Assembly (NCBI GenBank): GCA_036785375.1
Contig: JAWMAR010000193.1
Span: forward strand, 2,232,001 to 2,296,000
Reading direction: 5' to 3'
DNA from: Leucoraja ocellata
Taxonomy: Eukaryota
Length of the DNA: 64,000 bases
In this document: positions 8,514 to 60,320 of the stretch, piece after piece
Position numbering within the stretch: the stretch's first letter is position 1
Layout of the letters: the number at the start of each line of letters is the position of its first letter
Notes under the pieces: model-generated
Seen by the model: only the letters and a program-made list of their open reading frames with translations
Databases searched by the model: none
What the model was told of the DNA's origin: nothing
Program-made: the position numbers and the translations under genes

Positions 8514-8597
8514 GGGTCTGAAGAAGGATCCTGACCCAAAATGCCACCTATCTCCAGAGAAGTTGCTTGACCCACTGAGTTACTCCAGCACTTTGTG
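8514..8597 (+). repeat. Penelope terminal-repeat segment with decayed hammerhead core
   Basis: gggtCTGAAGAaggatcctgacccAAAAtgcc...ctgagttactccagcactttgtg. Confidence 0.7.
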
Positions 8598-8609
8598 ATT
8601 TTTGGTGAA

Positions 8610-9366
8610 TTCATTCCTAAACTCCTGGTCCTTGCCCTGAGGGCCTGCATCTGCAATTTACTTCTCGACTTCCTCAAAATAGACCAGTTGGTTAGAATTT
8701 ATCATAACATTCTTTCCACCCAGACCCTCAACATTGGTTTTCCTCAGGGGTTACATGGTCACTTCCCTGCACACCTATGTCCGTGTGACCAAGTACAATG
8801 CTAACAAAAACGATGAGAGGGAGTTCACAAAGGGACCGGAACCCTGTGTCATGGTGTCAGGACATCAACCTATCCCTTAACATTAACAAGATGAAAGAGT
8901 TTGTTTTAGACCTAAGGAACACAGACATGTTCTCATTAATGGAGCTGCTATAACAAGTTCAAGTTCCTTGGGATCCATATCACCAGCAACCTAACCTGGT
9001 CCCTTCAAACTGAAGCAGTGACCAAGAAAGCACATCAGCGTATCTACTTTCTTAGGCATGTAAAACGCTAAAGCATGTCCACAAGGATTCGGTCGAAGCT
9101 TTACAGATGCAGTACAGAAAGTATCCTAATGGAATGCATCTCAGTCTAAAATGGCAACTGCTCTGCTCTTGACCACCCAAACCTGCACAGAATGGCGAAC
9201 ACAGCCCAGTTCATCATAGGCTCGTCACTTTCTTTCATTCCAGCATTATTAAGGCTGGAATTATCATCAAGGATGCCAGCCACCCTAGCCTCTACCTTTT
9301 CTCTCTACTTTCTTGTAGAAGAAATAGGAGCTTGAAAACCCAGGCATCCAAACTTAAGAACAGCTT
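8610..9366 (+). mobile_element. Rex1/Babar-like LINE RT/3' fragment (decayed)
   Basis: Translates to ICNLLLDFL..LVRI..STQTLNIGFPQG. Downstream are fkflgihi-like and 3' motifs matching 59323-59480. Confidence 0.7.
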
Positions 9367-10373
9367 AGTCCAAGGGCTGGAGTCTAGTCCAAGGGCTAGG
9401 CAGTAAATCCCAAACACTTCTTCATTCCCTCTTCTTTCCCACCTTTCCTGATTTACTCATCCCCCGCCTTCTTCTCTTTGTTCCATCCTTTGTTCTATTT
9501 TTATCTTCCCTCATCTTTACTCCTTTTCTCTGTCCTCAATTTTTAATTATTACACATCTCCTTTCTTGTCAGCCATTTTCTTTCCATCCCCATGGAGATT
9601 AATGCCTGTGTCAGGATACAAATTTTTCTACTGCAAACATTTTAAGGATGCCCTCAAAACAAACATTAAAGAGCATGGCACACAACCAAATGGGGGTAGA
9701 TTTAAACCCAGGACAAGGTTAGTATGGAATCTTCTTATCGAGTCCACATCACAAGATTAGAAATTGTACAGCCAGAGCTGAACACACTTCTCGTCATCTG
9801 CATACAATGGCGTCTTGCGCTTCTTGTGTTTCTTGTGCTTCTTGTGCGTAGTGGTGGAAAGATTGGTGGAAACAGAACCGAGACATGAATGCTCTTTCCT
9901 TGACCCCAGCATGGAATTATTTTATTAGATAGGTAAATTCCCATTTTAAGCATAACCATCTCTCCTTGGATATGCACAAGTAGAAGACAAGAAAGGGAAG
10001 GGAAATGACCCAGTCACCTGCAGCCTGAAAATCCCATCAACCACTGTTCATGTCTACCAGAAAGTCTATGAATGGAGCATTGGACTTTCCAGCTATGATG
10101 TACACACCTACAACCCTTTCTCTTATCCATAGCAGATATTTTCTCTGAGCAAGAGAGATCGCCACCAGCAACACCCGATAACTGTTTATTAGAGCTTGAC
10201 TGTTCACTTTCTCCAACTTATAATAGCACCTACAGTTCAGTTAAAATACTAAATGCTTTGGAGTTTCCTTTCATGATATATTTGTTTAATGCACAACATA
10301 CTTGCAGCTATTTTTTTAAGTTCATGCATGGAATGGTACATAGAATGCATGCTTGCTTTGGACTTAAGGTAAA

Positions 10374-10600
10374 GTCAAGTCAAGTTTATTTGTCACATAC
10401 ACGTGAGATGTGCAGTGAAATGAAAAGTGGCAATGCTCGCGGACTTTGTGCAAAAAGACAAACAAACAAACAACCAAACAAACTACAAACAGAATGGAAC
10501 AGAATCACATATTCTTTTACATATTAAATATTGTGGGCGGAAGGAAAAAGGGAAAAAAACAGCAATTTAAAAAAAAAAAGCAGTAGAGTGGTACAGTAAA
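10374..10600 (-). mobile_element. LINE 3' tail (Rex/Babar-type)
   Basis: (tcaag)n tail followed by tttatttgtcacatac...cagtgaaatg. Confidence 0.55.
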
Positions 10601-14470: not shown

Positions 14471-14739
14471 GGGGCAGCACAGTGGCACAGCGGTAGAGTT
14501 GCAGTCTTACAGCGCCAGACACCCAGGTTCGATCCTGACAATGGGTGCTGTTTCGATATTCTTCCTGTGACCACGTAGATTTTCTCCGGGTGCTCCGGTT
14601 TCCTCGCACATTCCAAAGTCCGCAAATTCTAATTGTCCCTAGTGTGTATGATAAAATTAATGTATGGGGTGATTGCTGGTCAGCATGGACACGGTTGGCT
14701 GAAGGGCCTGTTTCCACGCTGTAATTCTTAAACTAAACA
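14471..14739 (+). mobile_element. HE1-type V-SINE
   Basis: ggggcagcacagtggcacagcggtagagttg...ggttcgatcctg...gaagggcctgtttcc...aaactaaac. Confidence 0.9.
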
Positions 14740-14741
14740 AT

Positions 14742-15501
14742 CACAATAATACTGTATTAGCCAAGTATGTTTTGCAACATACGAGGAATTTCATTTGCCA
14801 AGTCAGTCACACAATAAACAGCAACGGAACACATAAAACACATTTTACCATGAACATCCACCACAGTGACTCCTCCACATTCCTCACTGTGATGGAAGGT
14901 GAAAAAAAATTAAATCTCTTCCCTTAGCTCTCCTGCGGTCGGGGGCCACGAGCCCTCTGTTGACCGGACGATCCTGACTTCCGTAGCCGGCGGTGTTTGG
15001 GCCCTCCGTGTCGGGGCGATCAGCTCCTGCATCAGGGGGATGTCAGCTCCTCTGCGCCACCGATCGAACCCCGCGTCAGTGTTGATCGAACCTCCCGCGA
15101 CGTTGTAGCTTCCCGACTCGGCCTCTCCCAAGACTGCTAGCTCCCGATGTAAAGTCCGCAGGCGGCGGTTGGACCGATCCCAGGGAAGGGATCGACTCCG
15201 ATGTTAAGTCCACACCCCATGGGGGCACTCAAGGTCAGTCCGAGGAGGCCTCCAGCTTCATCGGTGGTAGGCCGCAAAGCGACCGGAGACACGATCCGAA
15301 ATGTAATCGCCTCTCCAGCAAGGTAAGATCTGAAAAAAAAAACTTTCCCCCGGCCTCACCCCCTCCCCCCACATAAAACAAACCGGAGAACATTTACACA
15401 ATCTTTTAACATATTAACACAAATTAAAAATTAAAAAAAGATGAAAAAACAGACAGACTGTAGGGGGGGCTGCCAATCGCGCTTGCCCCTGGTGGTGGAC
15501 C
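14742..15501 (-). mobile_element. Non-coding retroposon with CpG-rich body and LINE-like 3' tail
   Basis: GC/CpG-rich core at 14925-15320 and a hairpin at 14857-14896 shared with 50840-50874. Flanked by aaactaaaca at 14730 and 15502 (TSD-like). Confidence 0.6.
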
Positions 15502-15650
15502 AAACTAAACATCGTCTACCAGACAGCAAGTTTGGTGGACCAAACTAAACATCATCTACCAGACAGCAAGTTTGGTGGACCAAACTAAACATCGTCTACC
15601 AGACAGCAAGTTTGGTGGACCAAACTAAACATCATCTACCAGACAGCAAG
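15494..15650. repeat. 40-bp tandem minisatellite, ~3.9 copies
   Basis: Unit ggtggaccaaactaaacatc[g/a]tctaccagacagcaagttt, with variants alternating g,a,g,a. Confidence 0.95.
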
Positions 15651-15734
15651 GATTAGTCACTATGCAAAATTTGCTAGATGAGACCAAATCCCAGGACTAC
15701 ATTTTAAAATTATTGGATAATCCAGATATCTTAA

Positions 15735-15976: not shown

Positions 15977-16550
15977 TAAGGTTAAGTATTTTTTTTAACA
16001 GAAGGGACATCAATCAAATGTGTATGTATTTCATTGCTTTAGCGCACATTACATCAACTCTCATGAATAGATACGATTTAGTTAATAGGAATTATGTACA
16101 GCTTTCAATAAACTATAGATTGAACATTGTAACAATACATTGATATTGATGTAGAAGGTCTGAAAACTAATCTCCATCTGAATTATCACACATCCAGTTT
16201 CTCCAAAGATGCTGCCTGACCTACTGAGCTTTACTCCAGCAATTTGTGTCTTTTTAGATACAATGCACTACAATACAGGTAACTATATTTTGCACCCTAT
16301 GTATATCCTCCCCTTTGCTCTATCATGAGTTTGGCTTGATTATAGTTATGTACGGTGTATCTGAGCTGTTGGATAGCATGCAAAACAAAGCCTTTCACTA
16401 GCCTGACCTAAAAATATTTTGACGTGACAATAACAAACCTAAACTTAAACCTAAACCAAAAACCTAAACTAGATACCTAATTAGCAGATTTCAGGAATAT
16501 TTGAAATGAAGACAAGACAAATTGCATAAAAATAATAAAAAACACTATTA

Positions 16551-16682: not shown

Positions 16683-17722
16683 TGTGAAAGCTGCGATGAT
16701 TCAATAATTCACTGCCAACCAAGTCTGGTGACCATAAGACTGAGACTAATTTTATGGAGATTTTATTTGCAACTACATCCTACTGACTGCATGGTCCGGG
16801 ATAAATTACAGTGGTTCTGTTGGGAGAAATGTCTGTAAATGTTGCCATCAGTTTTTGTTTCCTCAGCTTTTGGAACAGAAATTAGTTTTGCTTGCTATAT
16901 AATGGACAATTTACTCTAAGACCAGTTGCAAGCCCCACTCTGCATCCAGCTCACTGGCCCATACAGTTTTGAAAAGGCACAGATAACTTTAATTTGCAGG
17001 ATGCACCCCATCAGTCCCAATAGCCACCAAAAGCAAACAAAACACGTCAGCAGAACCCTTCAGATATATTGCCTGAAACATTATCTCCCATGTCCTGTGC
17101 CCCATGGCCTCAAAATTTAATCAGCACAGGAGTCTTTTATTGCCTTGTACATTGGGTAAATGTAAATTATTGCTGGTGTGATCTAACATGGATTGGCACA
17201 GTCAAAATTTACACTGTGAGCAGCGCAAATTAAGTAGTTTTAAAATGCACTTATGACTGACTGCGGCTACCATACCATCATTTAGCATTGTAGTGCATTC
17301 ACTGAAAATGTGAATAGAGAGGCAAAGTGAGATTAAGCATAGCCTGCGGCTGTGAAATAACAAAAGACCCATAGATGTGATTTGTTTTTTTTAGTAACAT
17401 TTCAAGTAGCAGCTCTTCAAAAGCACAAGCTTCATCACAAACCAAAAGTATACTGCAAGCAGACACAAAATGCTTGAATCCAGCATCTGCAGTTCCTGGT
17501 GTCAAACAAACTCATATGTTGTGGTAGAGGCAAGTGCAGTATCAGTATAAACTTTGCTGTCTGTTTGGTCATTTTCGGCAACAAATGTATTTCATTTGTC
17601 CACATGCCTATTTTAGCCTTGTTGTATTTAAAATGTTAATTAAAAGATAAACATAAAAGGGGATGGTTTACCAATTAAATATAAATTCCCTTTTCTCTCT
17701 GTCTAATAAATAGATATTAAAA

Positions 17723-17758
17723 GGGTCTGAAGAAGGGTTTTGACCCGAAACGTTGCCT
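17723..17758 (+). ncRNA. Minimal type I hammerhead ribozyme motif (Penelope-associated)
   Basis: gggt-CTGAAGA-a-GGGT tttg ACCC-GAAA-CGTT-gcct: complete core, helix II, palindromic ACGT helix III, and a 4-bp helix I with wobbles. Confidence 0.65.
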
Positions 17759-18799
17759 ATTTCCTTCGCTCCATAGATGCTGAGTTTCTCCAGCATTTTT
17801 GTCTAAGTAGATATTAAAGTTGTGAAAGTAGATTGTCCCAATTGAGCTACAATTTTAATTGTAAAATAACTGATGCTTAAATTTATCCAAATAAATCCCA
17901 TAGAATAATTGAAAGTTTTAGCCTTCTGAGATTGTTAAAAACATATATGTTTCAGATTGAATGATGGGATGTACCATGTTATTCCAAGTTCACTGACAAG
18001 ATGTACAGATAGCAGAATTTTGGTGTGATTAGAAAAAAAGACCCAAGGAAGAGAAAATACTGCCTGGGACATATCTGGGACATATGACTATAATCTATCT
18101 GGGATATATGACATTAAAACACTCTTGATGAGTGATCAGTCTCAATGGGTGGGAAACTGAAAGGTGAATGGGTGGAGAGGAGAGGCTGTGTGGCAGTGGA
18201 AGTTGCACAGTTATCTGGAGAACTCGTCAATAAATGCTAACAACTGCGGGATTGAACAGATATGTCGATAGGCAGTGCCAGCCTGCAGAAGTGTGCATGA
18301 TCACTCATTATATTGAATAACAAGGAGTGTGTTTTGGTTGTTTTAAAAAAATGTTGGCCAGGAAGTCTGGACTCTAGTCAATTCTAGACTAGGAGCCTTC
18401 TTGAATGTGGTCCAAAACTGAGGCTTCTGACCAGGTGTTGAGCACCTGCTACATAGGAGGCTACAAGTGTCATAACGTGGAAATTAGGAAAGATAGTAGA
18501 CCAAAGATGAGAAGATAGGAATCAGTCTTCACATCCTTGTGATAAATGACTGCCCTTGATTTCATTAACTGCAAATGGATGCGTAAATTTGACAAATGTT
18601 TAGAGCTTGCAACCAAAACACATTCCTTCCATACATCTTTTCCTTTTAAGGGATATTGGAAGGATTCAATACCAATCCCTAATTTCCCTTAGGTAGATTG
18701 TGGTTAGGTGAATTAGTGTTATTAAAACCCCTGTTGTGAAAGAGAAACTGCAGGATTTTCAGGAAAGGAATTCCAGGATTTTGGGCCAGTAAGAATTCA

Positions 18800-19900
18800 A
18801 GGGTCAAGAGTGTCAAGGGTGCTTAATTGTCATATGTACTGGGAATGGAACAATGGAATTCTTACTCGCTTCAAGTTAACAGGCCTGTAACCTCAATACC
18901 CGCAGGTAAATATATAATAATGAAATAAATTGATAACAATAGTAGGTAACCATAATAGTGCAAAATTAAAGTCCATAGTACAACCAAAGACACAGTCCAT
19001 AGAAGATCATAGATGCTGAGATTACTGTTCTATCGTGTGCAAGTGCCTGATGATTGCCAAGAAGACGCTGTCCTTGAACTTGGTGGTCAGAATTTTCAGG
19101 CTCTTGTATCATCTTCCCAATGGAATAGCAAAATAAGAGCGTGGCCAGGGTGATGTGATGATATTGGGTGCCATTTTGAGGCATTGTCTCTTATGGATTC
19201 CTTTCAATGTGGGGAGATTAGAACCTGTGATGGGCCAGACAATGTCTACCACTGTCTGTAGTCTCCTTCATTCCTGGATGTCCAACTTACCAAACCAGGT
19301 CATGGTGCAACCAATCAGGATGCTCTCTATTGTATGCCTGTAGAGGTTCAATAGAGTATTTGTCGACTAATCTAATTGCTATTGGTTTAATATTATCATG
19401 CGTACCAAGATATGGCGAAAAGCTTTCTTTTGCATGCTATCCATACAAGAGTACATCATATCATGAAAAAAAGAAAATAAACAGAGTGCATAATATATTG
19501 TTACACCCACTGAGAAAGTGCAGATTAGAAAAGTTCAAGTAACAGCGGGAAAGAAGATGTTCTTGAATCTGGTGAAATGTACTTTCAAGGTTTTTTAATT
19601 TCTACCTGATGGGAGAGTGGAGAAGAGAGAATGACTGGGGTGTGAGTTGCCATTGATTGTATTGGCTGTTTTTCAAAGGCAATGTGAAGTGTAGATAGAA
19701 TTGATGGTGGGGAGGCTGGTTGCATGATGGACTGGGCTACATTCACAGACAGAGCTATTGCCATACCAAGCTATAATGCATTTTTATAGCATGTTTTCTT
19801 TGGTGCATCTGTAGAAATTGGTAAGAGTCATTGGAGACATGCCAAATTTCTTTAGCCTTCTGAGGAGGTGGAGGCATGATATATTTTCTAGGCTGAAATG
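18800..19900 (-). mobile_element. Cluster of Rex1/Babar-like LINE 3' fragments
   Basis: (tcaagag)n tail plus ttgtcatatg, and ttcaggctcttgtatcatcttccc, the antisense of the LPSGRRYRSL motif. A second fragment starts near 19380. Confidence 0.65.
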
Positions 19901-20224
19901 TGAATGTTGTTGGACCAATGGTGAAAGTGACATAATTTTCCCCGGTCAACAGGGGATTTCTCAGGTAACGAAATTCTCGTTTGCTTTCTCCCGTATCACC
20001 AATATTCCATTTCATGTTCTCCTCCTCTCCCTCTTTCTCTGCATCTTACCACCAATTAGAAGGACATTAACCTGAAATGTTTGTTCTAACTTTCTTCATA
20101 GATGTTGTGTGACCTGTTGAGTCCTCCCAGTATTGACCTACTTCATTACAATGTCTTTTTACTCCCATGTGGGTACATTGCAGGCCCACTTTTCCCCGGT
20201 GTTTGTGGGTACTGCTAAGTCATT

Positions 20225-21592: not shown

Positions 21593-21944
21593 TTTCAGAT
21601 CATTCAGGTCGGGGGGGGTGGGGGAGTTCCCCCCGCCACGGGTGCCATGTAATCCCATGCTACCTGCTCCATGGTCGGATAGTGGGTGACTAAACCGTCT
21701 TCCCCACCTGGTTTGCAGGTGAGGAGGGGGCTGTGGACCCCCAGCAGGACCAAAGAAAAGACCTGTTAAGGAGCGGATGAGCTCCTTGCGAGTCAACGGC
21801 CATCCACACTTCAGTAGAAGTTGCAATCGTTGTCATACATAGTATTGTATGGCACCGTGCCCGTTGATGTTTTCAATGATGATAATGGTGCTTGTTTATG
21901 GTTTCATGCCTGTACTTTGCCCACTAAAACCCTGTTCACCTGTT

Positions 21945-23070
21945 TCAACATCCTTGGTGCTACCTCCTGCACCCACACACAACTCACTAACTTCATTAAC
22001 TTCGCCACTACCTTCCATCTGGCACTCAAATACACCTGGGCCATTTCCGACATTTCCCTACCATTTCTTGACCTCACTATGTCCATCGCAGGTGATAGAC
22101 TTTTGACCGACATCCACCATAAACCCACTGACTCCCATGGCTATCTAGACTACACTTCTTCACACCCTGCTTCCTGTAAGGACTCCATCCCCAACTCCCA
22201 ATTCCTCCGTCTAAGCCGCATCTGCTCCCAGGATGAGGTGTTCCACACCAGGGCATCGGAAATGTCCTCATTTCTTCAGAGAACGGGGGTTCCCCTCCCC
22301 TAACATAGATGAGGATCTCACCAGGGTCTCTTCAAAACCCTGCAACACTGCTCTCTCTCTCCATCCCCCCACTTGGAACAAGAGCAGAGTCCCTCTAGTC
22401 CTCACCGTCCACCCCACTAGCCGCCAAATACAACAAATAATCCTCCGTCATTTTCACCACCTCCAACATGATGCCACCGCTCGCCACATCTTCCCATCTC
22501 CCCCCCCATCTGCTTTCTGCAAAGACCACTCCCTCCATAACTCCCTGGTCAATTCTTCCCTTCCCACCCTTCACACCCCCTCCCCAGGCACTTTCCCTTG
22601 CAACCGCAGGAGATGCTACTACACGTGTTGCATTACCTCCTCCTTCGACTCCATTCAAGGACCCAAGCAGTCCTTCCAGGTGTGACAGAGGTTCACCTGC
22701 ACCTCCTCCAACCTCATCTATTGCATCCGCTGCTCTAAGTTTCAGCTGATCTACATCGGTGAGACCAAGCGTAGCCTTGGCCATCGTTTCGCTGAACACC
22801 TACGCTCGGTCCGCATTAACCAACCTGATCGCCATGTGGCTCAGCACTTCAACTCCCCCTCCCATTCCGAATCCAACCTTTCTGTCCTGGGCCTCCTCCA
22901 TGGCCAGAGTGAGCACCACCGGAAATTGGAGGAGCAGCACCTCATATTCTTGGGCAGTCTGCACCCCAGCGGCTTGAACATTGACTTCTCCAATTTCCGG
23001 TAGTCCTTTCTGTCTCCTCCCTTTCTCAGCTTTCCCTCAGCCCTCTGGCTCCTCCACTTCCTTTCTTCAG
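21945..23070 (+). mobile_element. Penelope-like element: RT C-terminus and GIY-YIG endonuclease (pseudogenised)
   Basis: LPFLDL..KPTDSHGYLDYTSSHP..SIPNSQFLRLSRICS, then NLIYCIRC..IYIGETKRSL..RFAEHLR, with frameshifts and stops. Confidence 0.9.
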
Positions 23071-27512: not shown

Positions 27513-27725
27513 TCCCCCCCCCACCCCCCCACCCCCCCCCACCCCCCCACCCCCCCCCCCCCCCCCCCCCACCCCCGCACAAGCCAAATCTACTAAAAAG
27601 TCTGAAGTCTGAAGAAGGGTCCCGATCAGCAACATCACTTATCCATTTTCTCCGGAGATGCTGCCTGAGACGTTTAGTTACTCCAGCACTTTGCATGTCT
27701 TTTTTCCATCACAAATCTGCAGCTT
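27513..27725 (+). repeat. Poly-C tract followed by a Penelope terminal segment with decayed hammerhead
   Basis: C-tract at 27513-27576, then gtCTGAAGAagggtcccgatcagcaac...ttactccagcactttg. Confidence 0.75.
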
Positions 27726-28127
27726 TTCACCAAACATGCTGCAAACTATTATATAGCAATGCATTGAAATGCCAGGAAAGACAAAGGTGCATAGGGGCAT
27801 CCACTAATGGAAAACACAAGGATAGCCGTTGATGGATCACTGCGGTTTGGCTTGCTATATTTTATTAAATTTGCAATGGAATTTTTATTATGTGCTGCTT
27901 TCTACTTTTGTGCTGTGGCCAAGCAAACTTTGTGCTGACAGAAGACATAAATAATGTCAGACTGTGAGAAAATGGGATCTATTCACTCACAGTCCAACAA
28001 TGGGGAGTTGTCCTTGTTGATGTTGAACCAAGGTTCAGGCACCAGAATCATTCTCTCGTCCTCCCACATTTTCATGCCCCTCTTCTCACAGGATCTTCCG
28101 CTTAGCCTGTACCTATTCCCCAATCGG

Positions 28128-32053: not shown

Positions 32054-32055
<2 letters not shown>

Positions 32056-33334: not shown

Positions 33335-33559
33335 CAAAATGCTGGAGTAAATTAACAGGTCAGGCAGCATCTCAGGAGAAAATGAATGGGTAACGTTTTG
33401 GTTCGAAACACTTCTTCAGCCTCTTACTCTTAGTCTGAAGAAGTGTTTCGGGCCAAAACATCACCTATTCCTTTTCTCCAGATATGCTGCCTGACCCACT
33501 GAGTTATTCCAGCATGTTATGTCTATCTGCGGTGTAAACCAGCATCTGCAGTTCCTTTC
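33335..33559. mobile_element. Palindromic Penelope-derived mini-element with hammerhead-derived cores
   Basis: ~85-bp inverted arms around a 15-nt spacer, tail ccagcatctgcagttcct, and 13-bp TSD tataccaagggca. Confidence 0.85.
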
Positions 33560-34780
33560 TATACCAAGGGCATGTTTGATATCTGGAACATGTTGCCTGT
33601 GATTTTAGTGAATGCAGAAACTCACAGCATTTAAGTATTTAGGCAAGGAGGGGGTAGGCAGTTCCCATGGCACTATTTGTCTGCTCTCCATAATTCCATG
33701 GGGAGAGGAGAGCATGCATTATCAGAGCATGCAGATAATGTATGCATTATCATCATTACTAACATGGTGACCCATGTGACGCAAGTCATGTACAAGAAAT
33801 TGCATTGGACCTTGTTTTGAAAAATGCATGTGACATGGTCAATTTGTAAAACCTATGTATTTTGAAATTATCACTCTAACTTCTGTCGTTGAAGTAGAAG
33901 AAAAAAACAGCATGTGTCTAATATTTGCTGGTGATTTGCGGGCACTTCAAAAAGTACAAGGAGATGATGTACAAGGGATTGGGTGGAGCAGTGGCAAAAA
34001 TAGGTTTATTTGATGTCAAGGCATTAGGATGGTTACAATAAATAATAGGCTGCCGTTTTATGCAAATCGTATGCATTACCTTGGTTAAAGAAATCACATG
34101 CAAGTATCTCTAAATTTATCTCTGAACTGGCCCAACAATACGTTTTAGTATCAGGCCCACAAGGGAAATCCCTACTGTATAAACATATTGTAATTTCCCA
34201 CAGCAACTATTCCAACTGCCACTGAGTAAAATTGCCCCAATTAGTGCCAATTAAAGAATGGCATGTTTGTATTATTGACTCATATCCTTTGGGAATTAGA
34301 TTAAGACTGTTCAAACAATTTAATTTAGGACATTTAAAACATGCCAGGAAAAGGAGTGTAACTTGGTTTATTTGAAACCTTGACTTTAAATATCAGGTAT
34401 GCATTCTGCTGGTGATTCTTACTTTATTCCAAAAGCATGCTCACTCGAGACAATCGTTGGTTATCCATTGAATAGGCTGACCAGCCAAGCAACTTGCACT
34501 CTTCTAGTGAGGCAGTTAGAAATCTGTTTAGAGCTGGAACATAAAACATTTAATGTAACTTCTTTGCTAATATTCCACTTTGCTTGTCTAGTATGCCCTT
34601 AGAGCTTTGTAAATAAGGCTATACAGATTAAGCGTGGCACGATACATTTTTGTCATGTGCAGTATATCATGGAAGGTAGCAAGAACTTTGTAATTGGTTT
34701 AGAATAGTGATATTATATATACTACTTAGTTGATCAACATTGTGCTATTTACACCTAACATTGCTTAAAAATAAGTTTAA

Positions 34781-35031
34781 AACACAAAGTGCTAGAGTAA
34801 CTCAGTAGATCAGACAGTATCTCTGGAGAACATTGATGGGTGACGTGCCGGGTCGGGACTCTTCTTCAGACTGATTGTAGTGGGGGAGAGAGGAAAAAAG
34901 CTGGGAGCGAGGAGAGGCAGGACAAAGCATGCTGGGTAATAGGTGAACACAGGTGAGGGGGATTGTTAGGCAGATCAGAGGCCAGAGATTAAAACAGGTG
35001 TGAGACAAAAGGATTGAAGTGATGCAAATTA
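34781..35031 (-). mobile_element. Penelope 3'/terminal repeat, interrupted by the MITE at 35032
   Basis: Minus strand reads cagtCTGAAGAagagtcccgacccggcacgtcaccc. The sequence resumes after 36096 (tgaagcc..gaggaatgt). Confidence 0.75.
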
Positions 35032-42550: not shown

Positions 42551-44690
42551 AACTGTCATTCATATTGGTGTCTTGGTTGCCAGACCAACCCTTGTTCAAC
42601 CTTGAAAGTAAATGGGTGAGTTTGTTGGTTGATTGAATTATGCATTGCGCAGTAGATTGTGAAAATTCCAGAGTACACTGGCTGCTGAGTACCACAGAGA
42701 ACCACATACACCACTGTGTGGTGCATTCAGTAAAACATCATTTTCATCTTGCAGTAGTGCTGCTGTTGCAAGTAATTGAGCAGCTGTTAGAGCAGATTAT
42801 GTCCCTTGTCCTCTCAAATCCACTGTTTAGGTTATTTCGAGACACAGGAGGCTCCAGATGCTGGGATATGAAGCAAAAAGCAAATTGCTGGAGGAATTTA
42901 ATGGATCAAGCAGCATCCATGGAGGCAAACAGATGGTTTATATTTTAGGTCAATCTCAGCAATCATGAGTTTCCCAAGCAGTTTGATTCTTTGCTTCAGG
43001 ATTGCATGTTCTCTGAACAATGAGATGTAACTGTGACTGGCGAAGATTGATTGAGTTGTGCAAGCTGCTAGTGTTCCTGGAATTCTCCTTTGGAAAGGTC
43101 TTTTGCTGGCTGACCACCAACTCGATGTTGATTTCTTATTTTTTAATTTTTGTTATTGGTGGGTGATAAGTACTATCTCTATGTTTAAGAAATGTCTGGA
43201 CAGGTACATGGAGGGTTATGGGACAAACGCTGGCAGATGGAACTAGTATGGATGGGACATGTTGGTCGGTGTGAACAGGTAGGGCCGAAGGGCCTGGTTC
43301 CTCACTGTATGATTATGACTATGATTCTAAGTGGGAGATCTAATGTTCACATGATTGTAGATTTTGAGTACATTAAATTTGGGAGATGCTACAATTGTAG
43401 CAAGTGCTTTGATCTGTTTTGCCTCCTTTGTAGGCTGTGGCTCCTTTTGACTGCATCAGAGATCTCACTTAAATAACAGTGAACTGATAATTGTGATCCG
43501 TAGCTTTTGCCAGCATCAACATACTGGAATGATCCTGTACTGAGGTACAGTGTACTCAGCTTACAGTACAGTGTACTCAGCGTATTGTACAGTCCAGCAT
43601 CAATGGACCGGGTGAAGAAATTAGGTAATGGCAATGGTAATGGTGCTGGTAATCTTGATTTCAACTGCACGAAAAGTCTAACCACATGTGCGTTTGTACT
43701 TGATGTTTTATGGGGCTGCATATTTCATAGGGCTACACACCTACCATAACCTGCATAAGACTTGATTTCTCTGAGTGGTGTAGATAAGAGAATGACTCCT
43801 TGTAAACTTTGGGTAAATTAATTAAATAAAACTTCCTTCTATGCATCCTGTGAAAAAATACTTTGGATGCTGGGGTAGGTGTCTGCTGCAGTCTCATGTC
43901 ATCCGAGGCAGAGGTGTGGTAAATCTCCAATTTAAGTCAGTTGTGCTTCAAATAGTGAAGTTTAGGAAGGCAGAGTCTTCAATGTAAAAAGTGTGTAAAG
44001 TTAGTTGCCTGTTGACAAAGTATTGTGCATTAATTCGCCCATGAAAGCTGGTTGCATTTGCTTAGCCCTTTAAGAAATGTTGTTTCTGATCTTGTTCTTC
44101 TTTGACTGATCGGGAATTGTTCTTTTTCCACTAATGAGGTTGAAAATCTGGCAGATAATGTTTTTTGGAACTTGCACCACTGTAGGTTTCATTTCAATGA
44201 ATTTGCCGTTAGAAAAAAATACTGCTAGATCATACAGAAATGTGACTGAAAATGATGTTTGCGACTGGCATTATGACACTCAGAATTGTGGGCAAAATTG
44301 TTTCACTTGATATTACTTGAGTTTGAACCGCACTTGCACAGATGAATTCTAGCCCACGTTGCCCGGGATCGTTGGAGCGAGTGGAGGAGGGTCAGGGCTT
44401 ACAGAAATCTGTAACGTTCCACACTCCATAGGGAGGGTTCTGGTGGAAGCCGCTGATTGGTGGAAGCAGACTAGAGGAAGCAGCTGATTGGGTGCAACTT
44501 CAGGTTAGCATTTCTGCTTTCTGGTTAAAGGTACAGTGCTTTAGTAAAGGTACAGTGCTTTTTGTTTATATAATAAAGGTGCAGTTTAAAGGTCAAGAGG
44601 GAGCAGCTGTTGTGAGTCAGATACCTGCTGATTTCTCCCAGCAGTTTCTATTGTATTATACTTGTATAGGAACCAGGGTAAGGCGGGAGA

Positions 44691-46936: not shown

Positions 46937-47362
46937 TTAGTTTCGATATAATTATGGAGAGGGTCAGAACTGGAACTAGGGTTGAGATTTTTGATTGGAG
47001 AAAGGCTAACTTTGATGAGATGCGAAATGATTTAAAAGGAGTGAACTGGGACATTTTGTTTTATGGGAAGGATGTAGTAGAGAAATGGAGGACATTTAAA
47101 GGGGAAATTTTAAAGTACAGAATCTTTATGTTCCTGTTCGGTTGAAAGGAAACAGTAAAAATTGTAAAGAGCCCTGGTTTTCAAGGGAAATTGGACATCT
47201 TGTTCGGAAAAAGAGGGAGATCTACAATAATTATAGGCAGCATGAAGTAAATGAGGGGCTTGAGGAGTATAAGGAATGTAAAAAGAATCTTAAGAAAGAA
47301 ATTAGAAAAGCAAAAAGAAGACATGAGGTTGCTTTGGCAAGTAAGGTGAAAGTAAATCCAAA

Positions 47363-47469
47363 TAATAATAATAATAATGTTTTGTTTATAGAGACAGTGC
47401 ATATTAATTAACATTTTGCATGTAAATATGCGAGATTGTAGCCAATCAGTAGCTAATTTCCGTCTCTAG
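47363..47469 (-). mobile_element. 107-bp retroposed 3' tail of another LINE family, nested in CR1 ORF2
   Basis: (TTA)n tail and 6-bp TSD tccaaa. The host KVNP|KGFYSY is restored on removal. Confidence 0.8.
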
Positions 47470-49477: not shown

Positions 49478-49960
49478 TATCAAGAGTCGAAGAGCGTTTA
49501 AGTCTTTGTACCGACCATGAAACAATTAAATGTTTTCCTGCAGCCGCATAACAGCCCTGTAAACACAATAAACATGCATAAATATAATATATTTTTTTAA
49601 ATCAATACATTAATAACTAATAACAGAGCAACAAAAAACACAGTCCGTAGAAGTTCATAGATACCAAGGTTAGTTTTGTATTTAAGGGCCTGATGGTTGC
49701 TTGGAAAAATCCATTCTTGAACATCTTGGTCAAGGTTTTCAGGCTCCTGTACCCTTTTCCTGGTGGTAATAGCAAAATGAAAGCATGGCCACAGTTATTT
49801 GAATCTTTGATGATTTGACTGCCTTTTAGAGGCAGTGGTTCCTATAGATCCCTTCAATGGTGGGGATGTCAGTACCTATGATGGACTGGGCAGTGTCTGC
49901 CACTCTCTATACATGATCCTTGGCGTTTATGTAGCCGAACCAGGCCATGAACTGAACAGT
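49478..49960 (-). mobile_element. Rex1/Babar-like 3' fragment
   Basis: Colinear with 18800-19320. Confidence 0.6.
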
Positions 49961-51915: not shown

Positions 51916-52136
51916 CTATAGTATATTGTCATAGGCATTAAAAAACCTCCACCATGTCAGTGTAAATAAAGTTCGCACTTTTAATTCAACATTCAAGTAA
52001 TGATTAGTCATTGTGCATCAACATATAGGCCCAAGATTTACAAGTCTTACATACACAGTGCACTACAGATAGTGATGCATTACAAATCATGGCCCAGTGA
52101 TGAACTGATTGGTTCCCAATTACAATACTGTTTTAG

Positions 52137-54010
52137 AAACATAGAAATTAGGTGCAGGAGTAGGCCATTCGGCCCTTCGAGCCTGCACCGCCATTCAATA
52201 TGATCATGGCTGATCATCCAACTCAGTATCCCGTACCTGCCTTCTCTCCATACCCCCTGATCCCCTTAGCCACAAGGGCCACATCTAACTCCCTCTTAAA
52301 TATAGCCAATGAACTGGCCTCAACTACCCTCTGTGGCAGAGAGTTCCAGAGATTCACCACTCTCTGCGTGAAAAAAGTTCTTCTCATCTCGGTTTTAAAG
52401 GATTTCCCCTTTATCCTTAAGCTGTGACCCCTTGTCCTGGACTTCCCTAACATCGGGAACAATCTTCCTGCATCTAGCCTGTCCAACCCCTTAAGAATTT
52501 TGTAAGTTTCTATAAGATCCCCTCTCAATCTTCTAAATTCTAGAGAGTATAAACCAAGTCTATCCAGTCTTTCTTCATAAGACAGTCCTGATATCCCAGG
52601 AACCGTCTCTGCACTCCCTCTATGGCAATAATGTCCTTCCTCAGATTTGGAGACCAAAACTGTACGCAATACTCCAGGTGTGGTCTCACCAAGACCCTGT
52701 ACAACTGCAGTAGAACCTCTCTGCTCCTATACTCAAATCTTTTTGCAATGAAAGCTAACATACCATTCGCTTTCTTTACTGCCTGCTGCAACTGCATGCC
52801 TACCTTCAATGACTGGTGTACCATGACACCCAGGTCTCGCTGCATCTCCCCCTTTCCCAATCGGCCACCATTTAGATAATAGTCTGCTTTCCTGTTTTTG
52901 CCACCAAAATGGATAACCTCACATTTATCCACATTATACTGAATCTGCCAAACATTTGCCCACTCACCCAGCCTATCCAAGTCACCCTGAAGTCTCCTAG
53001 CATCCTCCTCACAGCTAACACTGCCCCCCAGCTTAGTGTCATCTGCAAACTTGGAGATATTGCCTTCAATTCCCTCATCCAGATCATTAATATATATTGT
53101 AAATAGCTGGGGTCCCAGTACTGAGCCTTGGGGTACCCCACTAGTCACTGCCTGCCATTGTGAAAAGGACCCGCTTACTCCTACTCTTTGCTTCCTGTTT
53201 GCCAGCCAGTTCTCTATCCACATCAATACTGAACCCCCAATGTCTTGTGCTTTATGTTTGTATACTAATCTCTTATGTGGGACCTTGTCGAAAGCCTTCT
53301 GGAAGTCCAGATACACCACATCCACTGGTTCTCCCCTATCCACGCTACTAGTTACATCCTCGAAAAATTCTATAAGATTCGTCAGACATGATTTACCTTT
53401 CGTAAATCCATGCTGACTTTGTCCAATGATTTCACCACTTTCCAAATGTGCTGCTATCCCATCTTTAATAACTGACTCTAGCAGTTTCCCCACTACCGAT
53501 GTTAGACTAACTGGTCTGTAATTCCCCATTTTCTCTCTCCCTCCCTTCTTAAAAAGTGGGGTTACATTTGCTACCCGCCAATCTTCAGGAACTACTCCAG
53601 AATCTAAAGAGTTTTGAAAGATTATTACTAATGCATCCACTATTTCTGGAGCTACTTCCTTAAGTACTCTGGGATGCAGCCTATCTGGCCCTGGGGATTT
53701 ATCGGCCTTTAATCCATTCAATTTACCCAACACCACTTCCCGGCTAACCTGGATTTCACTCAATTCCTCCAACTCCTTTGACCCGCGGTCCCCTGCTATT
53801 TCCGGCAAATTATTTATGTCTTCCTTAGTGAAGACGGAACCAAAGTAGTTATTCAATTGGTTCGCCATATCCTTGTTCCCCATGATCAACTCACCTGTTT
53901 CTGATTGCAAGGGACCTACATTTGTTTTAACTAATCTCTTTCTTTTCACATATCTATAAAAACTTTTGCAGTCAGTTTTTATGTTCCCTGCCAGTTTTCT
54001 TTCATAATCA
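52137..54010 (-). mobile_element. Young 5'-truncated CR1/HER1 LINE (RT domain)
   Basis: ORF 52540-54060 with KSPGPD, DFQKAFD, PQGSVLGP and FADD, and one 14-bp frameshifting deletion. The 3' 500 bp is nearly identical to 46401-46920. Confidence 0.95.
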
Positions 54011-54029
54011 TTTAGTTTGTGTCTTAACA

Positions 54030-54441
54030 CACGGGTAAACTGCTCCCCCCACCCCCACATCTGACCTGTGCCCCACCTAGACTTGCACCTATTTTCCCAT
54101 CTCCCTCTCCTTCCATCAACATTCCATCCTTTAGCTTCACAATTCGCAACTCTTTATTCCTATTGCCTCACACCTTCTGTGTCTTCATCTCTGGCCTTTG
54201 TCCAACCATCTGGCAACCCTCACCCCCACACCACCAGCTTACTTGTATCAACCCACAACCTACCAGGCTTTATCTTGACCCTCTTCTGGCTTTTCCCCCC
54301 TCCCCCACAATCAGTCTAAAGAAAAGTCCCAAACAGAAAAGTCACCTATCCATGTTCTCCAGACAAGCTATCTGACTGGCTGAGTTACTCCAGCACTTTG
54401 TCTTTTTTGGTATACCAACATCTGCAGTTCTTTGTTTCTAC
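54030..54441 (+). mobile_element. Penelope 3'/terminal repeat with decayed hammerhead
   Basis: Pyrimidine-rich 3' region, then cagtctaaagaaaagtcccaaacagaaaagtcacc...tgagttactccagcactttg...catctgcagttc. Confidence 0.7.
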
Positions 54442-54470
54442 GTAAAACTTTTACGCCAAAGTATCTTCTT

Positions 54471-54782
54471 GCACAGTAGTGCAGCGTTAGTGTTGTTGAC
54501 TTACAGCGCCAGAGAGCCGGGTTTGATCCTGACTATGGCTGCTGTCTTTACGGAGTTTGTAAGTTCTCCCTGTGACCCCATGAGTTTTCCCCAGGTGCTC
54601 TGGTTTCATCCCACACTCCAAAGAGGCACAGGTTTGTAGATTAATTGGCTTTGGCAAAGACTGTAAATTGTCCCTAATGTGCAGGGTAGTACTAAGGTAT
54701 GGGGATTGCTGATCGGCACGGACTCGGTGGTCCGTAGGGCCTGTTTCCATGCATTATCTCTAAACTAAGCTAAATTAAACTG
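54471..54782 (+). mobile_element. HE1-type V-SINE
   Basis: cttacagcgccagagagccgggtttgatcctg...gggcctgtttcc..tctctaaactaa. Confidence 0.88.
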
Positions 54783-56605
54783 ATATTAATTTTCCTTTAA
54801 CAACTAGCATTTTAAAAACAATACTTGATCATAATCACACTATAAATTGTTGGATATAGTTTGACTGCTGCAGTGCTAATTTGCAAGTGCAACTGCACTC
54901 AATATTAGTTAATTTACTTTGAAGCATGTTGAGAAGTCCTGAGGCTGCCCAAGGGAAGTTCAAATTCGGGAAAGATGATAGACATATCACTGAAATCACC
55001 ATGGCTAAAAGAATCCAGCTTTCCCAAAGTGAACACGCAATCCCTTGCCAGGATGAAGAAAGTACGTAACCTGAACTAATATCAGACTGCTGGAGGAACT
55101 CTGCGGTCTGGCAGCATCGTGTTGAGGGAAATGGACAGACGACACTTCAAGTCAAGACCCTTCTTCGGACTCTAAGTGTATCCAAGTACATTACCTGATT
55201 CCAGGCTCACTTATGAAGTTTAGTGTAGCTTCTGCTGATTTTTAATAGTGAACGCACCAGCTTTGATTCTGTTTCTTTGGATCAGATGCAATTAGCAGTG
55301 CTATTTATAGGCGAGATATTTTTCTCCTTGATGGAACAACATGACGATATAGGTTTACCACATCAAATGCAAATACATTGGACAGACAACATAACAAATC
55401 AAACAATCAATCAAATCTGCCTCGTAGATCCCTTTTCCACTTTTAGTTATTAGGAGAAGCCATTTGTAATTGCAGCTTGTATAAATTGGCGTCTATGGTA
55501 ACAGCATATGGAAGAAAGTTTAAAGCACCATTCAGATGAATCATTCCACAGTTTGTAGATCACTTCTGGGCTGTTCCTTCGCAGAAAAAGCTCGTGTAAA
55601 TAGATTCAGCAGTTCTGATTCTGGAGAGAAATGGAGTCAGATAAGTGAGGCTGAAGTCAATCAGAAAGGTGCGAGCTTTGCAGGTCTAATGGCACATTCC
55701 AAAAACTTTTTATGCTCTTATCGTCGTACTTCTCTACATATATTTGCTTGAGTGAGCAATTTTAAATTTCCTCTGAAATCTTAACATACCAAGGGACATT
55801 TGATGATAGCCTTTACCAACACCTTTTATAAAGGTGTGACACAAATGGAGTCTGGTGTTTTTGTAGGTGGCACAGTCCATGTGGAGAAGCTGTGATGGGG
55901 GATGTGCAAGGCTCTGGATTTAGTCCTTTGAGTCTGTATAAACACATTTGACTCTCCAAGCACTTTGATGGTTTAATGCATCTGTTGATAATGTGTTTAA
56001 ATTTGTTGGCAGTCTAAAGAAACTACACCCCACTGGTACACTGGCATTTTGTTTTTTAATAGAACTTGGATTTGTATTCCCGTAATCATTCCAAAAATTA
56101 GAGGGGGAATCTAAACTCTGAATGCATCCAACTGTAGATGCTAATCAACACCAATAACCACAGAAAAAAAGATGTAAGGCTTCAGAGAAGAATTACTGGC
56201 AATCAAGAAATGCAGTAAAGATTTCTTTTTTGTGTTGCCCTATATTCACAAAGACAAAAGGGTGTTCAAAATGTGCTTTTGTTATTAAATGAGTGTTTAT
56301 ATTATCAAATAGCTTATCGTGTGTTTAATATGCCCTTGTTTCTGGCTATGTGTTAAATCACCTTCCTACACAGCTCAATGGATAGTCAATGAAGATTACC
56401 GTGGACTGGCACTGTGTAATGTCACAATGTTGGATAGTGACACAGTTGTTAACGTTGTATATTTTCTGTGGTTCTCGTTGGGTAACTAGAGAAATCCCAT
56501 TGACTGCAGAACGTTACAGACAATGCTGCTTAAAAAGTGAATGTTATGCAGGGACGTATCTGAAGGAAAGCAAGTAGCTAATATGTAGTCTGCTCTGATA
56601 CCATT

Positions 56606-57025
56606 AGAGTCAAGAGTCAAGAGTGTTTTATTGTCATATGTCCCAGATAGAACAATGAAATTCTTACTTGCAGCAGCACAACAGAATATGTAAACATAGT
56701 ACACTGTAAACAATATAATAAACGAGAGAGAAAATAGTTCAGTATGTGTATATATACATATACTCACAAATACACATATACACAGTATAGATCATATATA
56801 TATACACGCACATACGTACACACAAACAAAAACAATGATAGTATAATAATAATAGTCTATGTAGTTCAGAGCTTATTGGTGGTTGTAATGTTTAATAGCC
56901 GAATGGCTGTAGGGAAGATGCTTTTCCTGAACCTGGACGTTACAGTTTTCAGGCTCTTGTACCTTCTTCCCGATGACAGGGGTAAAATGAGTGTGTGGCC
57001 AGGATGGTGTGGGTCTCTGATTATG
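56606..57025 (-). mobile_element. Rex1/Babar-like LINE 3' end
   Basis: (agagtca)n tail, tttattgtcatatgtcccagatag, and the antisense of LPLSSGRRYKSL. Confidence 0.75.
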
Positions 57026-57381: not shown

Positions 57382-57601
57382 TAGACAAAAATGCTGGAGA
57401 AACTCAGCAGATGAGGCAGCATCTATGGAGCGAAGGAAATTGGCAACGTTTCGGGTCGAGACCCTTCTTCAGACTGAAGAAGGGTCTCGACCCGAAACAT
57501 TGCCTATTTTCTTCGCTCTATAGATGCTGCCTCACCCGTTGAGTTTCTCCAGCATTTTTGTATACCTTCGATTTTCCAGCATCTGAAGTTCCTTCTTAAA
57601 C
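57382..57601. mobile_element. Palindromic Penelope-derived mini-element with back-to-back hammerhead cores
   Basis: 91-bp arms (57382-57472, 57474-57564) around a 1-nt centre, a 3' tail, and ataagata at 57376 and 57602. Confidence 0.9.
57442..57476 (-). ncRNA. Minimal hammerhead ribozyme core
   Basis: Minus strand cagt-CTGAAGA-a-GGGTC tc GACCC-GAAA-CGTT-gcc. The core is intact but helix I is weak. Confidence 0.55.
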
Positions 57602-59322
57602 ATAAGATATCTCAACAAAGCACATTGACAAAATCATGGACTAAGTAACACCTATTTTCCATTACGAGATAACGATAAGCACGATTCTCTGTCTCTATTA
57701 ATATGAGAAACCCTTTGCTAAAGTTGCTAGTGTGTGGGAACATGGTAAGATAACCACTCATGGGATCAGACAAATAAATCATTAGCAAACATGCTGCTAT
57801 AATTGTTCGATTTGTTGCCATGAATAATAATGGTCTTCCAACTATGATCGAATGAATTTTCCAGATACTTATAATCTCTAAATACAGGTGTGATCCAGGA
57901 ATAGTTTCATATTTATGATCTATGATAGCCCTTACAGATGCTTCATCTGGTAGCTCATAAAACAGTTCTAATTAACATTAGAGACATAGTTTGTAGTACA
58001 CTGTAGGGAGCCATTTCAGAGTATTAGCGCAGACAGTGCTGTTTGCTTTGTTTAGACAAGATATAGCTACTGTCAAAACAGATCACTCAAAGATGGACAT
58101 ATTTGGTAATAATAGTGAAGTTTACTTTTAGGGATGAGAACTTGTTAATTACCGACCATCAGTGATGTCATTTCTATATACATTATCTTGAAGAATATGC
58201 GTCTTCAGTTGCCAGTAATGTCCTCTGCAGGCTTTCTTATAGTGCTAGGCAACAGATTATGCCTTATAGGGATAATCTAGTTCAGATGACACTTCAGAAG
58301 AAAGGTAACTGGAGCCTCGCTGCATTATAAGAATTGTTATTGCAGTAATTGCATTGCATTATTACTTCTGCATACTAGATTGTTGTATAAAAAATGTGAA
58401 TTGCAGTTCTACAAAAGAATTATAAACACCATAATGCATTAAATGTAACAGAAGGCAATTTTAATTAATTCTCTAGTATGGCTTATGTTTTTGCTTTAAA
58501 CACAATTTCTCCAGGATAGCAGAAACCTGATTTTTTGCTTTACAACTCAGTTTTCCTGCTGCACTGTAATGGATACCATTTGACAGCCTCATTCTGTGAT
58601 TAAAGCTCATTCAGGGAAAATTTCACAAAATGGCATTAAATCAAAGTACTGAAAGTGCTAAATGGTGCCAAATCACAAATGCTTAATGTTGAACAAGCAA
58701 ATTTGCCTTCCTCTGCTAAAATCTGCATTTCCATTAATTGTTTCCAACTATGTGTAACCTCAGTTAATATTATCACCAGCATTCAAACATAATAGTGTGA
58801 TTTTTTTTCTCTCCAGTTTTATTACCGTTCAAAACCCGTTTGAACGGTAATAATCAGTTCAAAAAATATTCTGCTGCATCTTATTTGCTTTTTCAAACTT
58901 TAATGGTACTGATTTAAAATGGAAACCTGGGGCTCTATCAGCTATTGTGTGGCTGAGCCGACACAGACCACAAGGTCTTGGTTTCAATCTGGCCTGAATT
59001 AGTTAATCCCAGTCTTGACTGCAAGGAGTGTTATAATTACCTTGTTCAAAAGGAAGTTGGCTTGAGTTCCTATTTCTAATTTTTAAACAGTTATCCTTGT
59101 CGGAAGTGTGCATTTACAGACTTCAAGTGAAAAGAGACTCATGTATCCTTGAAACCAAATACCCTGCTGGCATGTTAAGGATCCGTGGTGAAGACATAAA
59201 CTTCTGAGGGTCTTGCCTCAAAACCATGAAGACTTAATGACCCAGAGACACTTCAGCACTTGGAGAGATACATGGCACTAATGTGGATAGGTGTGTTTTG
59301 ATTCGGGATTCTTCATCAGACC

Positions 59323-59683
59323 TCAAAAAGGCTGGCAGCATCATCAAGAACCCACATCATCTTGGCCACACACTCATCTCCCCGCTACCTTCAGGTAGAA
59401 GGTACAGGAGCCTGAAGACTGCAACGTCCAGGTTCAGAAACAGCTTCTTCCCCAAAGCCATCAGGCTATTGAACTCAACTCAAACAAAACTCTGAACATT
59501 AATAGCCCGTTATTAGTTTATTTGCACTCTATCTGTTTTATTTATTCATGTGTTTATACAGTGGTATATGGACACTCTGATCTGTTCTGTATTCATGCCT
59601 TCTATATTCTGTTGTGCTGAAGCAAAGCAAGAATTTCATTGTCCTATCTGGGACACATAACAATAATCTCTCTTGAATCTTGA
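59323..59683 (+). mobile_element. Rex1/Babar-like LINE 3' end
   Basis: KAGSIIKNPHH..LPSGRRYRSLKTATSRFRNSFFPKAIRLLN, (tcttgaa)n tail, and 8-bp TSD atcagacc. Confidence 0.88.
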
Positions 59684-59691
59684 ATCAGACC

Positions 59692-60320
59692 GATGGTAGT
59701 GCCGGGTGGTTGGGGGGGTGGAAAACTGGCAAATAGGTGTAAGCAGGACAAAGCCTGGCAACTGATCAGTGGACGCAGGCGAGGAGGGGTATTGATTGAT
59801 ATATATATAGGTGGATAGAGTCTGGAGATTAACAAATGGGTGACAAAAGGAGACCGAAGAAGGCAGAAAGGAGACAAGGAGACAAAAGGATGTCAGATAG
59901 GAAAAGGAGTTGAAGTGGAGTGAAATGTAAAACCAGAGGGAAGAACATAGGTGTAAGGGGATGGGATAGTGGGAGAAATGGAGCGGTGACACAGAAAATA
60001 GTAGGGGAGGAAACAGAAGGCGGATTGTGGAGTGTTACCTAAAATTGGGCGATAAGCTATCCAAGAGGAATATGAGGTGCTGTTCCTCCATTACTTCAGA
60101 GATGTTGCCAAACCCGTTGAATAACACAAGCACTTTGTGTCTATCTTTGGCATAAACCAGCATTTGCAGTTCTTTGTTCCTCCAGTTTACTTGTGGCCTC
60201 ACTTTGGTAATAGAGGAGGCCCAGGACAGAAAGGTCAGTAAGGGAATGGGAAATCGAGTCAAGATTGAACCATTGAGGTGGTTAGTAACTGGGAAATCCA
60301 GCAGGCCTGGGCGGACTGCG
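59692..60320 (-). mobile_element. Penelope GIY-YIG C-terminus and 3' region
   Basis: Antisense match to 22800-23000 (ggaggcccaggacagaaaggtc; atgaggtgctgttcctcca). Confidence 0.75.

Follow-up and report, generated by a model that had tools for sequence, protein, structure and literature searches.

How did a hammerhead-bearing sequence of about 90 nt come to lie, often by itself, at a dozen places in one stretch of Leucoraja ocellata DNA? The stretch, called the window below, comprises 64,000 nt (assembly GCA_036785375.1, contig JAWMAR010000193.1, positions 2,232,001 to 2,296,000); it is repeat-rich animal DNA with an assembly gap at 35683-35989. A first-pass annotation had reported about ten copies of this module and had proposed a retrozyme-like family that moves on its own by means of Penelope proteins. 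Judged by its sequence, the module derives from a Penelope-like element (PLE): it is that element's terminal repeat and carries a minimal type I hammerhead. Its copies are real and represent a variant of the known PLE insertion anatomy. We put at roughly 0.5 the probability that the short copies are run-off complementary DNAs (cDNAs) from the 5' end of a PLE RNA, with the palindromes among them made anew at each insertion.

Results

Copies of the module and their hammerhead

The window was searched with a profile built from four copies (57470, 17723, 33430 and 54311, which match by construction). There were 22 matches at E<=10, among them 14 arms at 12 loci with E<1e-4; the best match in five reversed or shuffled control sequences reached E=0.049. 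All ten places reported before are among the 12 loci, together with 20058 and 42851-42952. Four further matches (8475-8518, 17477, 59280-59322 and 62291-62367) lie at control level, three of them with separate support. Exact-pattern scans of viral contigs, metagenome contigs and prokaryote genomes gave no match to the module.

From 5' to 3', the module starts with a short helix I strand, the CUGAAGA core, an extra A, a helix II of 4-5 bp and GAAA, and continues with the self-complementary ACGU, the cut triplet and the helix I partner. Downstream of the hammerhead follow an 8-bp hairpin, a T-rich end and an optional tail of ~35 nt, which repeats the 3' motif of the module hairpin 25-30 nt downstream. 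The cores match the pattern of metazoan PLEs, in support of a minimal type I hammerhead of Penelope origin. Yet the presence of a hammerhead at all ten reported places holds in part only: the core is recognisable, but just two of the 12 hammerhead regions (17727 on the plus strand and 57472 on the minus strand) are intact and pass the minimal-hammerhead descriptor, for which shuffled sequences average 0.07 matches, and the copy at 60091 has no hammerhead. The other ten regions are recognisably decayed versions of the order CUGANGA, helix II, GAAA, palindromic helix III, UH and helix I. Decay at CpG positions, stated before, is supported. The change at 8535 is as described, and CpG positions deviate from the majority in 32 of 94 cells (27 by transitions), other C or G positions in 86 of 422 (Fisher p=0.006).

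An Rfam scan of the window found no hammerhead family at E<=1; its five matches were microRNA models far under their cut-offs. Single-strand folds of monomers were no stabler than those of shuffles (z from -0.4 to +0.8). In the helices, 75.7% of the cells were paired, a share reached in 12 of 500 shuffles, but compensatory changes were not above shuffles. A reading frame that begins with the ATG in the 3' hairpin stays in register into the tail in four of the five tailed copies (for example 57521-57601 and 33482-33559), and three of them have an in-frame stop.

The link to Penelope

In three copies (34781, 54311 and 59690) the module is preceded by a pyrimidine-rich untranslated region (UTR). 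The UTR upstream of 34781 and 54310 matches 59702-59926, which adjoins GIY-YIG-like coding sequence (tblastn E=6e-6). This shared UTR bears out the view that the module ends Penelope 3' fragments at these two places, where the copies have no coding sequence of their own. The first fragment (34779..35030, minus strand) consists of ~155 nt of UTR and a tail-less module, the second (54141..54443, plus strand) of UTR, module and tail; contigs of relatives align with it from ~54065. The third (59280..60325, minus strand), absent from the first-pass annotation, comprises a GIY-YIG end, UTR and hammerhead; the core of the hammerhead is split by 361 bp of inserted sequence (59323-59683), flanked by an 8-bp duplication. 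Stretches of this insertion recur at 56607-57025, 49679-49832 and 19036-19157.

A broken Penelope-like body at 21896..23003 (plus strand) contains the end of the reverse transcriptase (RT), a CX2-5CxxC-type linker and a GIY-YIG endonuclease, which scored above the Pfam cut-off and is also supported by tblastn. This Penelope-like fragment is 78% identical to a Leucoraja erinacea protein, and the next three matches come from Mobula, Amblyraja and Hypanus. The linker between RT and endonuclease is described as a Neptune/Nematis feature (PMC8557442); because it is present in the body of the window (with one extra residue) and in 112 of 121 long relatives, it points to a PLE of the Neptune/Nematis type and away from Poseidon. 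The body (region 21896-23070) stops shortly past its stop codon, with no module after it.

Target duplications and copy lengths

Exact direct repeats were sought at 17 boundary settings, with 298 random positions as the control. Four settings had repeats of at least 8 bp, namely 11 bp (17722-17807), 13 bp (33335-33559), 8 bp (57384-57601) and 10 bp (60091-60174); the other 13 had 7 bp or less. Repeats of at least 8 bp occurred at six of the random positions and repeats of at least 10 bp at none. The four insertions between their own direct repeats, as first described, are thus confirmed, although the 8-bp duplication of 57384-57601 taken alone is borderline. The lengths between the duplications, in the same order, are 86, 225, 218 and 84 bp, close to the 85-225 bp given before. 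A smooth continuum of 5'-truncated Penelope ends would have spoken against a separate short class; what is seen in the window is a discrete class. Comparison of the boundaries within the window revealed no carried-over flank common to different copies. Duplications, ends and homology to Penelope 3' ends together support insertion by Penelope-type machinery, as had been proposed.

The 86-bp monomer (17722..17807, plus strand) stands alone, is tail-less and has an intact minimal hammerhead, with its core from 17727, a predicted cut after 17754 and an internal deletion of 12 bp. The 84-bp copy (60091..60174, plus strand) is tailed, is truncated downstream of the hammerhead and has inserted antisense into the Penelope fragment 59280..60325.

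A fixed 5' boundary

At all six readable stand-alone loci (8514, 16157, 17723, 27606, 33335 and 55083) the homology extends on the 5' side to position -3 before core base C3 and not to -4. The C at -4 is kept in none of the six, whereas TC at -5/-4 is kept in all three UTR-attached copies (Fisher p=0.012 by locus). The palindrome at 57382 turns at the same point. Altogether, seven of 11 readable loci end at this boundary, three continue into the UTR and one (60091) begins ~15 nt downstream of the cut site; seven of 11 in one boundary window corresponds to a rough binomial p of ~2e-5 after 80 windows, assuming 5% per window. The old copies 20058, 42851 and 62291 and the remnant at 17477 were excluded as unreadable. 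None of the 11 loci has its 5' end at the hammerhead cut site.

The boundary is exact to the base. In 33335 the two arms, separated by 9 nt of filler, end on one and the same A. In the module at 27599..27735 (plus strand, with a decayed tail) the first 7 nt occur twice, each time starting from that same A. The modules at 8514..8604 (plus strand, core CpG-decayed), 16157..16254 (plus strand, hammerhead destroyed, tail-less) and 55083..55171 (minus strand, stand-alone, core decayed) also begin at the fixed position; a clear target duplication was not found for the latter two. Less can be read from the older copies. An old diverged module at 20050..20140 (plus strand; E=3e-5) has pyrimidine-rich upstream sequence which, judged by eye only, suggests a UTR-attached copy. 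Another at 42851..42952 (minus strand; E=6e-12) is tailed, its 5' end not readable, and a possible very old one lies at 62291..62367 (minus strand; E=0.018, at control level).

The fixed boundary cuts an initiator-like YYANWYY motif between -1 and +1, and the whole motif is kept in the three UTR-attached copies. At 34874 (in the 34781 copy) and 54311 it fits the vertebrate and fly initiator consensus (PMC1475891); 59690 has G at +1. A match resembling the downstream promoter element (DPE) is present at +28..+32, with four of five positions plus G at +24 in 34874 and five of five in 54311. The motif match used the spacing rule between initiator and DPE, and the combination occurs at 0.05% of window positions.

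Palindromic copies

Two copies are clear head-to-head palindromes. The first (33335..33559, 225 bp, 13-bp target duplication) consists of a tail-less left arm (33335-33422, minus strand), the filler and a tailed right arm (33432-33559, plus strand). In the second (57384..57601, 218 bp, centre 57473, 8-bp target duplication) the left arm, again tail-less and on the minus strand, contains the intact hammerhead with its core from 57472, and the right arm is tailed. Both thus combine a tail-less inverted arm with a tailed direct arm, and nothing except the joint lies between them. A decayed inverted arm before the 8514 copy (8460..8517, minus strand, left end approximate) makes a third, degenerate palindrome; its alignment score was reached by three of 1000 shuffles and its fold had z=-2.0, although the profile gave only E=0.052. 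No inverted arm was accepted upstream of 16157, 27606 or 55172, where 418-529 of 1000 shuffles scored as well. At 17460..17500 the end of an inverted arm seems to be joined straight to a tail, weakly suggestive of a collapsed palindrome (local alignment score matched by six of 1000 shuffles; profile E=0.01); the stretch looks like a palindromic copy minus its centre.

The three palindromes have three different joints: an overlapped 9-mer at 57382, the filler at 33335 and a further type at 8460-8604. This argues against a palindromic master copy. Both monomeric and palindromic forms thus exist, as had been reported, but the palindromes are predicted to fold as one hairpin (-108 to -153 kcal/mol) that buries the ribozyme. 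Because such an RNA would be one long hairpin holding one sense hammerhead, it would be unable to act as a ribozyme dimer.

3' ends and sequencing runs of related organisms

Public reads and contigs of related organisms (three DNA runs and one RNA run) were aligned to the 428-bp copy 54035-54462, a diverged reference on which alignments are interrupted within the hammerhead. Each DNA run contributed about 21,000 aligned contig records. There are two kinds of 3' end, tailed and tail-less. In the three DNA runs, loose ends accumulate at 54401/54408 and at 54441, and the sequences that flank them are unrelated (agreement 0.36-0.44); the accumulation at 54401 may come partly from an indel of the reference copy. 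In three tailed copies the tail ends 117-120 nt from the start of helix II. The depth peak over the module was 12-26 times that over the UTR in the DNA runs, a ratio that is no copy number but fits a large class of short copies.

In the three DNA runs, 20, 15 and 14 contigs contain a direct go-back joint from 54401 to 54336, as do 253 of 4,835 RNA reads, in several sequence variants. The joint corresponds to a 66-nt head-to-tail repeat from the G of GAAA; the repeat does not include the ribozyme's 5' half, and the window has no copy of it. If preceded by a whole hammerhead, this repeat could supply the helix III partner strand within one RNA. Among the 15 displayed of 302 joints, no go-back joint lies at the cut site.

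Discussion

Proposed run-off from the 5' end of a Penelope RNA

The reading that we favour takes the fixed boundary as a transcription start. Penelope RNA would then begin three bases before the hammerhead core, and the template of the short copies would be the front of a longer Penelope RNA. The enzyme would nick the target, and RT would start copying inside the RNA, either ~90 or ~125 nt from its 5' end, which would account for the two 3' boundaries. By running off the 5' end of the RNA it would yield a short insertion. A palindrome would result if both nicked target strands were primed, each at a different one of the two sites, and microhomology or filler then joined the resulting run-off cDNAs head to head. 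The short copies would mostly be dead ends, with the hammerhead carried along uncut.

We infer the RNA start, the RT start sites and twin priming from the ends, the duplications and the arm pattern, together with the work on Poseidon of Anolis. Here and below, comparisons with published systems refer to the passages of the cited papers that bear on these points. In Anolis, copying by RT begins 111-118 nt from the start of helix II, and the tail spans the distance from one of two such start sites to the other. Cleavage and extension take place on both strands of the target, and a template has to include sequence up to +172; ribozyme mutants insert normally, and hammerhead cleavage is dispensable (PMC11167929).

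Several points weigh against this reading. The transcription start is predicted from sequence, and the count at the boundary is small. The promoter motifs are degenerate, were recognised post hoc and overlap the ribozyme core, which constrains them. A full-length element with the module ahead of the open reading frame (ORF) was not seen, and translations of the module did not match the N-termini of 121 PLE relatives. The biochemical precedent is a Poseidon element, whereas the body in the window is probably Neptune-type. Penelope of D. virilis has a 75-nt intron that ends at helix I, with the start 46 nt upstream of it (PMC4209133, PMC2377424), and thus another geometry exists. The depth ratio is confounded by divergence of the reference and by subfamilies with other UTRs. 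Finally, and with little weight, the 4,835 reads of the RNA run, in both directions, had no pile-up of starts or ends; the run is a fragmented polyA library of a related organism, of which 6% was covered, on the diverged reference.

Do the short copies move as an element of their own?

Alternatively, the short copies could be a separate non-autonomous element that has kept an internal promoter, is transcribed from it and is re-inserted by Penelope proteins. Among the alternatives this survives best, though we regard it as unlikely. It would account for the discrete size and the fixed ends and draws on the internal position of Penelope promoters (PMC2377424). Precedents are the mobilisation in trans in Adineta, for which sequences of the pseudo-long terminal repeat (pLTR) are enough (PMC3846280), and known non-autonomous PLE derivatives (PMC8557442; bioRxiv 10.64898/2026.07.22.740005). 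Within the window, a young subfamily (17723 and 57382, 90-95% alike) has no UTR-attached member and a private helix II variant is common to both arms of 33335; in related genomes, the derived 66-nt head-to-tail joint has been amplified. However, the central joints differ in all three palindromes and a palindromic RNA would be a closed hairpin, the short copies lose two pyrimidines of the initiator-like motif and share no carried-over flank, and they end ~55 nt before the template requirement known from Anolis is satisfied (PMC11167929). These points weigh against a module that moves on its own, as the first-pass annotation had it. The strongest form of this alternative, that skates and rays carry a highly abundant self-propagating 'ribozyme SINE' (short interspersed nuclear element) of 90-130 nt, which has promoter and hammerhead in its first 35 bases and uses Neptune-type Penelope proteins, and of which an amplified derivative, bringing a second half-hammerhead in its internal 66-nt repeat, could cut itself without a partner RNA, is doubtful.

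Less probable origins: truncation, splicing and circular RNA

A further possibility is that the copies are ordinary 5'-truncated Penelope 3' ends with a strong hot spot, where the cDNA snaps back at a near-palindrome around helix I and self-primes or drops off. The joint of 57382, a symmetric hairpin apex, would fit this, as would 60091, a plain truncation. Self-priming at palindromic junctions has been proposed for PLEs of Adineta (PMC3846280), and single and opposite-strand minimal hammerheads have been taken as truncated PLEs (PMC4209133). Yet snap-back leaves unexplained the base-exact start of the monomers, the filler of 33335 with arms that end on the same A, the doubled 7-mer at 27606 and the tail-less inverted arm; moreover, RT would be expected to stall 3' of the helix, not past it. 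We consider this origin improbable.

More improbable still is an origin from spliced RNA. Directly 5' of the core, 34874 and 54311 have a pyrimidine tract (81-86%) ending in CAG. Of the three UTR-attached copies, these two could have a splice acceptor at the boundary, which recalls the D. virilis intron that ends at helix I (PMC4209133). But the third copy, 59690, has CGG instead, the stand-alone copies have no upstream exon in common, and PLEs usually retain their introns (PMC8557442).

That the copies are true retrozymes, whose RNA is cut by paired hammerheads, circularised and reverse-transcribed, is highly improbable even though the core, with its self-complementary helix III, is intact in two copies and retrozymes have been reported in one chondrichthyan genome (bioRxiv 10.64898/2026.07.22.740005): the window contains no tandem units and, among its 11 readable loci, no end at the cleavage site, so that the label 'retrozyme-like' is not borne out, no cut-site joint is among the 15 of 302 displayed, the RNA reads do not pile up, and the single strong go-back joint, which occurs in DNA too, leaves out the ribozyme's 5' half.

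What the copies may tell

The copies bear on how Penelope makes inverted ends and one-sided tails and on what its hammerheads do. If run-off is the correct reading, tens of thousands of minimal insertions would record the RNA 5' end, both RT start sites and the joint at base resolution, and twin priming could be told from snap-back by counting alone. Most dispersed 'solo' PLE hammerheads would then be passengers and not retrozymes. If instead the short copies propagate themselves, few ribozyme-bearing mobile elements would be smaller.

Other repeats in the window

An uninterrupted frame of 918 aa at 28908-31664, with RVT_1 and a weak zf-RVT match, is apparently a young 5'-truncated long interspersed nuclear element (LINE), which we take to be L1-like. 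A second LINE, presumably CR1-like, has a GDSL-esterase first ORF, an apurinic/apyrimidinic (AP) endonuclease and RT (44682-49222, plus strand, and 52134-54033, minus strand); a LINE 3' end at 46406-47031, which shares 99% identity with 52134-52433 over 300 bp, interrupts it. The long inverted repeat at 61429-61970 (161-nt arms, 92% complementarity), probably a miniature inverted-repeat transposable element (MITE) or fold-back element, was the source of the spurious microRNA matches. Four to five nearly identical 40-nt units stand in tandem at 15493-15690. Two other dispersed families of short repeats, SINE-like by appearance, occur at 1312-1558, 6773-7390, 14471-14748, 25106-25414, 26405-26852 and 54465-54781.

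Comparison with known systems

Earlier publications already describe dispersed PLE hammerheads, single or on opposite strands, as well as solo retrozyme monomers, inverted arms and tails. A fixed 5' end or a run-off class of PLE copies was not found in the literature, a search outside of which lay Repbase, Dfam and Lunse et al. 2016; as far as the literature was searched, the base-exact 5' boundary and the proposed run-off origin did not appear and are new points.

Biochemical work covers a single PLE, Poseidon PAc of Anolis carolinensis (Frangieh et al. 2024, PMC11167929). PAc and the copies in the window are alike in an RT start, putative in the window, ~115-120 nt after the hammerhead and in the optional tail. 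In PAc both strands are nicked and cleavage is dispensable, and the run-off model assumes the same here. PAc belongs to Poseidon, whereas the window points to a Neptune-type element, and the passages on PAc describe neither a run-off class nor an ORF-less palindromic one.

The minimal hammerheads of metazoan PLEs (Cervera and de la Pena 2014, PMC4209133) have the same extra base after position 9, the same palindromic 15.2-16.2 and no loop 3. They are mostly single dispersed motifs, with opposite-strand pairs 100-700 bp apart that resemble the palindromic arms described here. The passages concerned read the singles as probably truncated PLEs and contain no end mapping, whereas here a base-exact 5' end and target duplications are found. 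With the non-LTR retrozymes of animals (Cervera and de la Pena 2020, PMC7229834; Li, Clavereau and Pollet 2026, bioRxiv 10.64898/2026.07.22.740005) the copies share the non-coding, pLTR-derived nature, a type I hammerhead and dispersed monomers. Retrozymes are, however, defined by head-to-tail hammerhead units and circular RNA, and none were seen in the window.

The anatomy agrees with that of endonuclease-containing (EN+) PLEs (Arkhipova et al. 2013, PMC3846280; Craig et al. 2021, PMC8557442), which have the same inverted 5'-truncated arm, one-ended tail, duplications of 8-10 bp, palindromes at the inverted joint and solo pLTRs. Unlike canonical EN+ insertions, the short copies consist of only one or two arms, with no ORF or UTR. 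In the window as in EN+ PLEs, the module lies downstream of GIY-YIG coding sequence and UTR (59280-60325, minus strand), the duplication is variable, the tail is optional and measures 30-40 nt, and the 5' arm is inverted.

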